Virus record (IMG/VR): IMGVR_UViG_2636416136_000013
Coordinates: 1-40,427 of that record
DNA from: a virus
Lineage: Duplodnaviria; Heunggongvirae; Uroviricota; Caudoviricetes
Direction: 5' to 3' (one strand)
DNA: 40,427 nt
The translations under genes and the position numbers were made by a program. Below the pieces are notes generated by a model. That model was not told the origin of the DNA and did not search any database. It saw nothing but the letters and a program-made list of their open reading frames with translations. The number at the start of each line of letters is the position of its first letter. Positions within the stretch are counted from its first letter, which is position 1. Positions 10,332-13,727 of the stretch are shown here, piece after piece.

Positions 10332-11279
10332 ATGAGCAATACAGCAAAAATCTACGATTTCAGCGCCGCACACGAGCGCAGGAGCAACAGGATGGAGAAC
10401 CAGAAAACTGGTTACATTCCGTTGTACCGGAGCATTCTGAAACAGTCATGGGCGAAAGATGTTTATCTTCGCACCCTGTGGGAAAACCTTCTCCTGAATG
10501 CCGCCAGAAAGCCATACAAAGCGAATTTCAAAGGTCATGAATGGCATCTGCAACCCGGTCAACTGGTTGTGACAGCAGCTGATTTAGGTCTTCAGTTATG
10601 CGACAGGCATGGCAAGCCGGCAAGCCGTGATCAGGTTGAGCGGATGCTTCAGGTTTTTGTGAAAGAGGGGATGATCTCCATTGATGGGGAGAAGCAAAAA
10701 GGTCGTGTGATAACCATCACAAATTACCATGAATATGCTCAAAAAATGGACAATTCACCCGCACATGAAGCCGCACAAACAACCGCACATGAAGCCGCAC
10801 ATGATGAAGCCAGTAATGGCGCGGCTTTCAGCGCACATGCCGCACATGAAAGCGCACATGAAGCCACACAAACAACCGCACATCATGAACAAGAAGGTAT
10901 TAACAAGAATATAAATAATACCCCCCTACCCCCCAATGGGGGAGGCGATGGGCAGGTTAAACCTGAACGTCGCAAGGCAGAACGAATCGACTACGAATCC
11001 TTCCTGAACGCCTACAACACCGAAGTCGGTGACAGACTGCCACACGCTGTTGCGGTCAACGAGAAACGCAAACGCCGCCTGAAGAAAATCATCCCGCAAC
11101 TGAAAACGCCAAACGTGGACGGTTTCAGAGCGTATGTCAGGGCGTTTGTACATCAGGCCAAGCCGTTTTACTTCGGAGACAACGACACTGGCTGGACGGC
11201 AGATTTTGATTACCTGCTGAGGGAAGATTCGTTAACGGGAGTTCGGGAAGGGAAGTTTGCAGACAGGGGGATTGCATGA
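10332..11279 (+). CDS. O: Replication initiation protein (O-like; internal repeat-encoded linker)
   Basis: Located where lambdoid phages encode O / P22 gene 18; [10 protein letters not shown] start resembles lambda O; central region encodes repeated AHEA/TTAH units from DNA direct repeats; stop overlaps the helicase start (ATGA). Confidence 0.75.
10758..10899 (+). repeat. Iteron-like direct repeats inside the O-like gene (candidate replication origin) followed by an AT-rich stretch
   Basis: Multiple copies of CGCACATGAAGCC / GCACATG units within ~140 bp, then aacaagaatataaataata and a C-rich/G-rich inverted element; the same layout as ori-lambda inside O. Confidence 0.6.
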
Positions 11280-13669
11280 GACAGGATATCGAAGCGAGCG
11301 TTATCGGTGGCCTGCTGATTGGTGGATTAACTCCAACCGCCAGTGACGTTCTGGCAACGCTTGAGCCGGAAGCGTTTTCAATTCCGCTCTACAGGAAAGC
11401 CTTCGAAGTTATCCGTAAGCAGGCGAGAAACAGAAATCTAATCGACGCGCTGATGGTTGCCGAGGCGTGCGGAGAGGAGCATTTCACGTCAATCCTGATG
11501 ACCAGCAAAAACTGCCCGAGTACCGCAAACCTGAAGGGATATGCCGGAATGGTCGCGGATAACTATCACCGCCGTCTGGTGCTGGAAATCATGGATGAAA
11601 TGCGTGAACCAATTCAGAGCGGAACCATCGACGCGTCGAGTCAGGCGATGGATGAACTTGTAAAGCGTCTCTCAGCTATCAGAAAGCCCCGTGACGAGGT
11701 TAAACCGGTACGCTTAGGGGAAATCATCACCGACTACACTGACACGCTTGACAGGCGTCTGAGGAACGGAGAAGAGTCAGATACCCTGAAGACCGGAATC
11801 GAAGAACTTGATGCCATCACCGGAGGGATGAACGCGGAAGACCTGGTGATAATCGCTGCTCGTCCTGGTATGGGGAAAGCAATGGCGCTAAGCGAAGGGA
11901 TTTTACTTGCAGATGGCACCTGGACTACTCACGGAGAAGTCAAAATTGGCGATCGCATCGCGTCAATAGACGGGCTTCCTTCGGAGGTAATTGGCGTCTT
12001 CCCACAAGGGAAGAAATTCACATATTTAGTCACCTTTGAAGACGGACGTAGCGTGAAATGTGCCGACAACCACTTATGGGAAATTTCATCATCAAGATTT
12101 ACTGGTAAACGCGTTGTTGATACTGATGCGCTGGCTGGGATGCTACAAAAAACACGTTATCAGGGAAGAATAAGAGTGCCATCCTTGACCGGAGACTTTG
12201 GTAAAAATATTTCCCTTGATGGTTGGGTTATTGGTGCTCTACTTGGTGACGGTTCGTTGATAAAAGGCATCAAATTCACCAACTCGGAAGAATATGTCCT
12301 GAGCCGCATGAGTGATGCAATTGCACCATTGCGACTGGTTAAGGTAGGAGAGAATGATTATTTGATAAGCAACCAAAAAGGCCAGAAGAACCCACTATTG
12401 GACAAACTACGTGGCATTGGGGTGATCGGGAAAGGTGCGTCCGAGAAGGAAATCCCAGCAGAAATTTTTAGTGCTAGCAAAGAAATACGTACCGGTGTTT
12501 TAACTGGCCTTCTCGAGACAGATGGCTGGGTTGAGAAGTCCGGATGCATCCGCTTTAGTTCATCCAGTCAGAAATTAGCTAAAGGATTAGTAAGGCTTGT
12601 TAGATCTTTAGGTGGAACCGCCAAAGAATCCAGCAGGACGGGAATAGTTTACACGTACAAAGGAGAGAAGCATGACGGACTTGATGCACACATGGTCAGC
12701 ATGAAGTTGCCATCATCTTTGATAGAGCAAATTCACTCACCACGTTTACGCAAAAATCTCGGGATTAACAGGCTTGGCGACCTTGGTGTGGGTATCAAAT
12801 CGGTTGAAGTTGTTGAGCCAGAAGAGTGTCTCTGCATCATGGTAAGCCATCCTAGCCATCTCTATGTGACAACGGATTACATCGTTACGCACAATACGGA
12901 ACTGGCGCTGAAGATTGCCGAAGGCGTTGCAAGCCGCGTTATTCCTGGTTCTGACGTCCGGCGCGGGGTATTGATTTTCTCAATGGAAATGAGCGCATTG
13001 CAGATTGCAGAGCGAAGCATTGCCAACGCCGGGAGGATGTCGGTTAGCGTACTGCGAAATCCTGCATCGATGGATGACGAAGGCTGGGCGCGCGTTGCTA
13101 ACGGCATGAGTCAGCTTGCAGATTTGGATGTATGGGTAGTCGATGCCTCGCGGTTATCGGTCGAAGAAATACGCTCAATCGCAGAACGGCACAAACAGGA
13201 AAATCCAAACCTGTCACTCATCATGGCGGATTATCTTGGCCTGATTGAGAAGCCGAAAGCAGATCGCAACGACCTCGCAATTGCTCACATCTCCGGAAGC
13301 CTTAAGGCGATGGCGAAAGACCTGAAAACGCCTGTGATCTCCCTAAGTCAGCTTTCGCGCGATGTTGAGAAGCGACCAAACAAACGCCCGACAAACGCAG
13401 ATTTGCGTGATTCAGGAAGCATTGAACAGGACGCAGACTCAATCATCATGCTCTATCGGGAAGCGGTATATGACGAGAACAGTAGCGCCGCGCCATTTGC
13501 TGAAATCATCGTGACGAAAAACCGTTTTGGCTCACTTGGTACGGTTTACCAGCGGTTCTGTAACGGACACTTTGTTGCATGTGACCAGGATGAAGCCAGA
13601 CAGATTTGCACAGCATCAAATGCACCTGCTGCGCGTGGCAGACGATATGCACAAGGGGCTGACGTATGA
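11276..13669 (+). CDS. DnaB-family replicative helicase interrupted by an intein
   Basis: Walker A ...[11 protein letters not shown] is split from [10 protein letters not shown]...; C-terminal DnaB motifs follow ([49 protein letters not shown]). The exteins alone total ~458 aa, normal for DnaB. Confidence 0.9.
11879..12895 (+). mobile_element. Intein (~339 aa) with a LAGLIDADG homing-endonuclease domain inserted in the helicase P-loop
   Basis: Block A-like A(M)[13 protein letters not shown] after GMGK; block B NHLW; two LAGLIDADG motifs ([13 protein letters not shown] and [14 protein letters not shown]); block F ECLCIMV; block G YIVTHN followed by Thr. The exact N-terminal boundary is uncertain by about 2 residues. 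Confidence 0.8.
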
Positions 13670-13693
13670 CCATCTACATCACTGAGCTAATAA

Positions 13694-13727
13694 CAGGCCT
13701 GCTGGTAATCGCAGGCCTTTTTATTTT
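13694..13727 (+). terminator. Rho-independent terminator after the helicase gene
   Basis: Stem CAGGCCTGC/GCAGGCCTT with loop, followed by TTTTTATTTT. Confidence 0.7.

Follow-up and report, generated by a model that had tools for sequence, protein, structure and literature searches.

A probable full-length class 3 intein with a LAGLIDADG homing endonuclease in the P-loop of a DnaB-type helicase from an enterobacterial prophage

Class 3 inteins are defined by the absence of Cys, Ser, or Thr at position 1, combined with the co-varying residues Trp B:12, Cys F:4, and Thr G:5; the +1 residue is usually Ser or Thr, and experiments have shown the His of block B (B:10), the Trp, and the Cys of block F to be critical (PMC2807308, PMC3196547). 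A phage origin has been suggested for these inteins, which are found preferentially in helicase-like proteins (PMC2807308, PMC3196547), and insertion between the Lys and the Thr of the P-loop has been described as classic in phage terminases (PMC5050341). Here, we analyzed a 40,427-nucleotide (nt) stretch of Caudoviricetes DNA (IMG/VR record IMGVR_UViG_2636416136_000013; hereinafter, the window) and, specifically, its gene for a DnaB-type phage helicase, an open reading frame (ORF) of 797 amino acids (aa) and 2394 nt (11276..13669, plus strand, as are all features of this gene given below). Directly after the Walker A Lys of this helicase lies an insert of 339 aa, and the coordinates given for it in the original prediction, which was made from the nucleotide sequence, proved exact (11879-12895); an allele that lacks the insert is 1017 nt shorter. 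The insert is a bifunctional intein, and very probably it is a full-length class 3 intein with a LAGLIDADG homing endonuclease at DnaB site b, for which we infer splicing. The original prediction singled out such an element as worth checking; it is not surprising to specialists, class 3 inteins in phages and in helicase P-loops being the textbook case (PMC2807308, PMC6195587, PMC5050341), and a paralog in a Shiga toxin (Stx) phage had already been noted (PMC3430580).

The prototype of comparison is the intein of mycobacteriophage Bethlehem originally labelled DnaB (MP-Be DnaB; PMC2807308). This intein corresponds to residues 141-481 of gp10, the terminase large subunit; the numbering of the gp10 intein (His65, Trp67, Lys319-Cys320-Ile321, Asp324, His328, Phe330, and Thr339-His340-Asn341) reproduces that of PMC2807308 exactly. 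Two other Bethlehem proteins were rejected in this role. The annotated DnaB-like helicase gp61 is only 273 aa long and contains no intein, and a tblastn search covering the right genome half gave no match; the intein of gp51 is a different one, which begins with Cys and follows the class 1 pattern. In a BLASTP comparison, the window intein aligned with the prototype end to end (E = 4e-20, 27% identity). Both are phage-borne, full-length inteins with LAGLIDADG motifs and similar size (341 aa in Bethlehem, 339 aa in the window), with a non-nucleophilic first residue, His65, Trp67, Cys F:4 (320 vs 319), a Thr-His-Asn end, and Thr+1, and the prototype residues His65, Trp67, Cys320, Thr339, His340, and Asn341 fall on His65, Trp67, Cys319, Thr337, His338, and Asn339, respectively, of the window intein. 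The prototype residues have been mutated experimentally, and His65, Trp67, and Cys320 are essential (PMC2807308). The two inteins differ in that the prototype resides in an actinophage terminase and the window intein in the DnaB-type helicase of an enterobacterial prophage, and the loop between blocks F and G is one residue shorter in the latter. The window intein is also similar (BLASTP E = 5e-29) to the intein of Catera gp206, a class 3 intein for which splicing has been shown by experiment (PMC3196547).

The window intein carries the complete class 3 signature, comprising Ala1 in block A (11879-11881), His65-Leu-Trp67 within the NHLW motif of block B (His65, 12071-12073; Trp67, 12077-12079), Cys319 in block F (Cys520 of the precursor; 12833-12835), Thr337-His338-Asn339 in block G (12887-12895), and Thr+1 (Thr541 of the precursor; 12896-12898), the predicted second splicing nucleophile and the Walker A Thr. 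Ala1 gives the non-nucleophilic first position of class 3; Trp67 (B:12) is located two residues past His65, and both align with His65 and Trp67 of the Mycobacterium chimaera DnaB1 intein (MchDnaB1) and of the Bethlehem intein; Thr337 (G:5) directly precedes His338-Asn339 at the C-terminal junction THN|T. The intein blocks, the two LAGLIDADG motifs, and the sequences NHLW, ECLC, and IVTHN on which the class 3 assignment had originally been based are all present, the Hint and LAGLIDADG domains were recovered by sequence searches, in an AlphaFold model, and with Foldseek, and Ala1, Trp B:12, Cys F:4, Thr G:5, and Thr+1 align with the prototype and are conserved across 89 relatives. One refinement concerns the block F Cys, which does lie in ECLC: by three independent alignments, the position of the predicted nucleophile is the second Cys of ECLCIM, Cys319, not the first. 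Cys319 aligned with Cys124 of MchDnaB1, with the engineered Cys of gp41-1_WCT (6riz), a gp41-1 intein with the Trp-Cys-Thr (WCT) triplet, and with Cys320 of the Bethlehem prototype.

Conservation of the signature was counted among the 89 relatives, each time over the sequences that have the respective position. Ala1 is kept in 47/56 sequences, His65 in 65/68, Trp67 in 67/68, Cys319 in 70/76, Thr337 in 71/76, His338 in 69/75, Asn339 in 69/74, and Thr+1 in 67/73. Cys317, the first Cys of ECLCIM, is variable (30 Cys, 25 Thr, and 11 Ala). The relatives are hosted by DnaB-type helicases, PhoH, and other P-loop NTPases, with typical junctions GK|AQPLD…VTHN|T. Given the three validated class 3 homologs and the 80+ relatives with the same signature, the window intein likely belongs to the monophyletic class 3 clade.

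In their position within the host protein, the described counterparts of the window intein are the class 3 inteins at site b of mycobacterial DnaB (Mycobacterium smegmatis DnaBi1, 6bs8; M. chimaera DnaB1, 6rix; and M. leprae; PMC6195587, PMC7664689). These occupy the same place in the DnaB P-loop, show identical His65/Trp67 numbering, and have the Walker A Ser or Thr as the +1 residue; in a Foldseek comparison, the splicing domain of the window intein alone matched 6rix and 6bs8 with template modeling scores normalized to the target (TMt) of 0.76-0.87. Unlike the window intein, they are mini-inteins that have lost the endonuclease, with Ser instead of Thr at +1 and Asp instead of Ala at B:7; they reside in the essential chromosomal DnaB rather than in a prophage gene, and the sequence similarity is weak (E ~1e-6).

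Similarity to known inteins, including that in the Hint domain, on which the original prediction hinged, ranged from 1e-6 to 7e-11 for solved inteins, in addition to the 4e-20 for Bethlehem. Specifically, a phmmer search of PDB sequences matched gp41-1 with the engineered WCT triplet (6riz; 6.9e-11), wild-type gp41-1 (5e-8), the class 3 inteins MchDnaB1 (6rix; 1.3e-06) and M. smegmatis DnaBi1 (6bs8; 2.1e-06), and, over the central part of the insert, PI-SceI, the yeast VMA1 intein (~7e-8). An AlphaFold2 model of the intein built on 52 aligned relatives had a mean predicted local distance difference test score (pLDDT) of 96.3 and a predicted template modeling score (pTM) of 0.93. Bifunctional inteins took the top ranks in a Foldseek search of PDB with this model, namely PI-SceI (E = 5e-19; score normalized to the query, TMq, 0.75), followed by TliVMA, PhoVMA, and PI-PfuI; Hedgehog Hog domains, which have the HINT fold, and I-DmoI, which has the endonuclease fold, were matched as well. 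The modeled architecture thus consists of an N-terminal HINT half, a LAGLIDADG endonuclease, and a C-terminal HINT half. The N-terminal half (intein residues ~1-105; 11879..12193) contains blocks A and B and is supported by alignment to 6riz, 6rix, 6bs8, and the Bethlehem prototype; the endonuclease domain (residues ~106-295; 12194..12763) is supported by Pfam matches to LAGLIDADG_3 and Hom_end, the alignment to PI-SceI, and Foldseek; and the C-terminal half (residues ~296-339; 12764..12895) contains blocks F and G and is supported by alignment to MchDnaB1 and the prototype.

The endonuclease domain contains two LAGLIDADG motifs, each with its acidic residue intact, on an α/β LAGLIDADG fold: motif 1 (12221-12259), with the predicted catalytic D124 (12248-12250) in GALLGDGS, and motif 2 (12491-12532), with the predicted catalytic D215 (12521-12523) in GLLETDGW. 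In an HMMER alignment to PI-SceI, K190 (12446-12448) falls on K301 and D215 on D326, which we take to be active-site residues of PI-SceI. These residues are strongly conserved among the relatives (D124 in 77/79, K190 in 84/87, and D215 in 87/87). PI-SceI, the structural archetype for bifunctional inteins, shares the two-domain architecture with the window intein and differs in being a eukaryotic class 1 intein (Cys1 and Cys+1) with an extra DNA-recognition region and ~15% identity. Against two relatives that are 65% and 72% identical (from other lambdoid contigs, both Logan metagenome contigs and both cut by contig ends), dN was 0.24-0.33, with synonymous sites saturated; the only computable dN/dS ratio, that for the endonuclease domain, was 0.115. 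As far as can be judged from these comparisons, both halves of the element are under strong purifying selection. Each of the two contigs contains a stop codon in the intein frame, a few dozen bases from the contig end (L011, 4561-4566; L012, 1-83), which is probably assembly-end noise rather than real decay.

The insert interrupts the P-loop precisely, in frame, between the Walker A Lys and Thr (GMGK|…|TELA). The N-extein (helicase residues 1-201; 11276..11878) comprises the DnaB N-terminal domain (Pfam DnaB, residues 3-95) together with the beginning of the ATPase domain, is colinear with the intein-less allele, and ends with ARPGMGK, the first half of the Walker A motif, with GMGK at residues 198-201. 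The intein, precursor residues 202-540 (1017 nt), opens with AMALSEG and closes with IVTHN, and is followed by TELA, the start of the C-extein (residues 541-797 and the stop codon; 12896..13669). Pfam DnaB_C is split around the insert, with the main match at residues 540-762 and a small piece at 171-203; within the insert, Pfam detected LAGLIDADG_3 (26.6 bits, with a cut-off of 22.5), Hom_end, and Hom_end_hint, and NCBIfam recognized a replicative DNA helicase with an intervening stretch whose only other matches are intein-containing proteins. The G+C content is 43-46% in the insert and 52-53% in the exteins and flanks. The predicted masses are 87.0 kDa for the precursor, 36.8 kDa for the free intein, and 50.2 kDa for the ligated helicase of 458 aa.

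Relative to intein-less alleles, the insertion is precise. The intein-less allele of Escherichia coli OkiPb01713 (WP_000806599.1, "replicative DNA helicase") is 1377 nt long, which equals 2394 minus 1017; once the insert is removed, the window gene is colinear with this allele and differs from it at 26 nt and 3 aa. The intein-less site reads CGTCCTGGTATGGGGAAA|ACSGAACTGGCGCTGAAG. A junction query with the insert deleted gave one uninterrupted match in 667 of 5426 complete E. coli genomes, at 96-99.8% identity. This insertion point is DnaB site b, the classic P-loop site. Within ~165 nt of the junction, OkiPb01713 and the window differ only by a synonymous change at the third position of the Thr+1 codon (12896-12898), which is ACG in the intein-bearing allele and ACC in the closest intein-less allele (L003); with one intein-less allele compared base by base, this could be a marker of co-conversion or target immunity, or due to chance.

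No Walker A motif was found anywhere in the unspliced precursor, and deletion of residues 202-540 creates the only one in the protein, ARPGMGKT. An intact Walker A elsewhere had been named in the original prediction as the sign of a domain fusion, and the dependence of the helicase on splicing claimed there agrees with these findings. The precursor should be ATPase-dead for want of a P-loop, which fits the discussion of P-loop inteins in PMC6195587, and because it lacks a Walker A motif, phage replication should depend on splicing of the helicase.

By homology to the characterized class 3 pathway (PMC2807308, PMC6195587, PMC7664689), His65, together with Trp67 and Thr337, would activate the block F Cys319, which would attack the Lys201-Ala202 peptide bond and so transfer the N-extein onto its sulfur, forming the block F thioester branch. 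The N-extein would then pass to the hydroxyl of Thr+1 (Thr541), cyclization of Asn339 would free the 36.8-kDa intein, and an O-to-N acyl shift would yield a normal Lys-Thr bond in a 50.2-kDa helicase with the restored ARPGMGKT P-loop. The endonuclease would cut intein-less helicase alleles at the site coding for GMGK|TELA, with repair copying the intein in (homing). Splicing is suggested by the intact ORF in many genomes, the purifying selection, and the Stx2a phage of WG5::TT12A described below; the endonuclease is predicted to be active in homing.

The window intein is present in 30 of the 5426 complete E. coli genomes. The helicase gene of strain AH21A060 is identical to that of the window, and among the four sampled E. 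coli genomes that differ from the window, the 797-aa frame is open in three (L005, L006, and L008). It is also open in 51 phage records (49 Stx2a-converting phages, TL-2011a, and Stx2a 981509), and 54 contigs encode the exact protein, which NCBI lists as "DNA helicase [Escherichia coli]". All nine protein variants from E. coli and Salmonella are intact, with the catalytic residues untouched, including those from Salmonella serovars Schwarzengrund and Kentucky, which differ by 4-5 residues. Unrelated "DUF6246 family" proteins of 217 aa, from Salmonella and Citrobacter, are also assigned to the 90%-identity cluster of the 797-aa helicase; this looks like a clustering artifact of the protein collection. 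The same gene is located in a Stx2a prophage at wrbA of a strain named WG5::TT12A, a name that we read as denoting a laboratory lysogen made by phage infection; prophages specific to strain TT12A are mobilized by mitomycin C, with an increase in excised copies (PMC11052207). If WG5::TT12A is such a lysogen, a phage that depends on this gene is viable.

Comparison of intein-bearing alleles showed 4-7 differences in the 1017 nt of the intein and 25-33 in the 1377 nt of the exteins, a 3-6-fold lower divergence of the intein (Fisher p 2e-4 to 6e-3). This contrast fits recent horizontal spread of the intein into helicase alleles that had already diverged. The low divergence of the intein, its G+C content below that of the host gene, and the presence of a paralog in an unrelated helicase all point to mobility. 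The low divergence, the paralog, and the presence of the same intein in both E. coli and Salmonella are indirect indications of cleavage and homing.

Several observations weigh against a working class 3 intein that spreads by homing. At position 7 of block B, the window intein has Ala, whereas M. smegmatis DnaBi1 has Asp and the prototype has Ser, which is dispensable there. The WCT triplet grafted onto a class 1 intein does not alone yield a working class 3 intein (PMC7664689), so that the signature by itself is no proof of activity. The lower divergence of the intein could result from ordinary mosaic recombination rather than homing. The lysogen status of WG5::TT12A rests on the strain name, and a literature search for a paper describing this strain found none. 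The gene of ET734, the fourth of the sampled E. coli genomes, ends prematurely after residue 711, and a transposase gene follows it. Finally, in RefSeq, the Prokaryotic Genome Annotation Pipeline (PGAP) lists the gene as two or three pseudogene fragments, with features flagged "incomplete; partial in the middle of a contig" or truncated at the N-terminus to start at an intein-internal Met; this split was seen in every complete genome inspected (L001 and L005-L009). Because the reading frame is uninterrupted, the fragments look like a failure to model inteins and the split like a systematic annotation artifact for intein-containing genes.

The last two of these observations would be expected if the intein were a dead relic, the precursor remaining unspliced and the helicase being effectively a pseudogene, with the carriers replication-defective or reliant on host DnaB. 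There is a precedent in a class 3 look-alike from Arthrobacter that was inactive (PMC3196547); that intein, however, lacks His B:10 and Cys F:4 and has only stub exteins (PMC3196547), whereas in the window gene all catalytic residues and both full exteins are intact. Together with the frame open in three of the four diverged E. coli genomes, in the nine E. coli and Salmonella variants, and in the 51 phage records, the apparent strong purifying selection, and the presence of the gene in a Stx2a phage of a second host background, WG5::TT12A, this makes the loss of splicing unlikely. Still less probable is a working intein that splices by a route other than that of class 3, for example, with Thr+1 attacking the N-terminal junction, as in the class 2 intein of KlbA, and the block F Cys playing a structural role. 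Ala1 is common to class 2 inteins, and the mechanism of the window intein is assigned by homology only; nevertheless, the WCT triplet is absent from class 2 inteins, which are known from KlbA alone (PMC2807308, PMC3196547), whereas the window intein has the full triplet, end-to-end homology to inteins with an obligatory block F Cys, and a structural grouping with the class 3 DnaB inteins of solved structure. A permanently fused domain or mobile DNA of another type, that is, an insertion sequence element, a transposon, or an intron with a LAGLIDADG ORF, can be dismissed with near certainty: although group I introns can also contain LAGLIDADG ORFs, and some of these ORFs are free-standing genes, the unspliced protein lacks a Walker A motif, the insert keeps the reading frame, with a length divisible by three and HINT halves on either side of the endonuclease, inspection of its ends found no target-site duplication or terminal repeats, and an Rfam search of the region found no intron or other RNA family match.

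A working class 3 intein could, in principle, be a conditional switch as well as a parasite, with maturation of the helicase gated by the free thiol of Cys319; Cys317 lies two residues from it in the sequence, and block B contains Cys61. Oxidants or Zn2+ reversibly block splicing of the class 3 intein DnaBi1 of M. smegmatis, at the same DnaB site (PMC6195587, PMC7360933). Such gating in the window helicase appears doubtful; were it to occur, the replication of P22-like and Stx2a prophages, and hence the dosage of Shiga toxin genes after induction, would be tied to the redox or metal state of the host cell. The locus raises the possibility that thiol-dependent splicing gates prophage replication.

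A paralogous intein of class 3 type, with 50% identity over the full length, is located at residues 372-713 of the 968-aa replication protein of Stx2a_F451 (L004, 1388-4294). It resembles the window intein in having Ala1, DHLW, ECLCIMV, and THN|T, in its insertion after the P-loop GK (GHGK|…|TEV), and in its occurrence in E. coli Stx prophages; it differs in the host protein, a non-orthologous Toprim primase fused to a gp4-type helicase and not a DnaB/P22 gp12-type helicase. The F451-type intein was found in 79 of the 5426 complete E. coli genomes. The insertion sites of the two inteins share only 22 of 48 nt, which suggests that the endonucleases differ in their targets and that the lineages split long ago. 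Two non-orthologous replication modules of Stx phages thus each carry a related intein at GK|T. The P genes of φ24B, Min27, and related Stx phages match a short 5′ stretch of the window intein, and the intein of this φ24B/Min27 type is presumably the InBase entry EP-Min27 Primase. The intein in the P gene of φ24B was noted, unclassified, by Smith et al. 2012 (PMC3430580).

The element is of a well-understood kind, and for intein biology, it adds little beyond one more class 3 intein where this class is expected; the DnaB-type copy itself is not described in the literature searched. Specifically, literature searches for inteins in Stx2 phage helicases, with Tori & Perler 2011 and the InBase lists outside the coverage, found only the φ24B P-gene intein and no description of the DnaB-type copy. 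At the level of reviews, inteins have been stated to appear absent from E. coli and Salmonella (PMC5050341). The window intein (30 genomes) and its paralog (79) in the set of 5426 E. coli genomes, up to ~2% if the two sets do not overlap, along with the occurrence in Salmonella, contradict this statement. For annotation, the consequence is that prophages that may well be replication-competent, including the Stx2a phages of O121:H19 and O157:H7, appear with a broken helicase in RefSeq. The gene resides in clinically relevant Stx2a phages and provides, in the genetically tractable E. coli, a phage whose replication should require class 3 splicing, for the study of conditional splicing in vivo and of homing between two helicase families.

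The prophage in the window has PHROG matches to an integrase, a repressor, CII, an O-like initiator, NinB, the large terminase, the major head protein, and a tailspike. Judging from the order and sizes of the ORFs and these matches, it combines a lambdoid early region with an overall P22-like layout from integrase to tailspike; its initial description as an enteric lambdoid prophage accordingly fits the early region and not the overall layout.

The region downstream of the helicase gene varies among the prophages. The AH21A060 prophage is 99.9% identical to the window on both sides (blocks of 4697 nt and 1541 nt) and, after the helicase stop codon, at the place of window positions 13690-13697, has ~658 extra bp with an HNH endonuclease gene (L001, 4820-5477). 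An HNH endonuclease gene likewise lies downstream of the helicase in the Stx2a prophage of WG5::TT12A (L009, 18136-18747), and the window at 13690-13697 represents the empty site. This pattern of presence and absence looks like a polymorphic free-standing homing endonuclease beside the intein-bearing gene.

Upstream of the helicase, in the gene for the O-like replication initiator (10332..11279), a CCGCACATGAAG-like repeat with a period of 12 nt occurs five times in overlapping copies at 10747-10901. The repeats encode a His/Ala-rich stretch and coincide with a strong excess of A over T (AT skew 0.37-0.41). They may be the iterons of the replication origin, by analogy to the ori of lambda, which is located within gene O.

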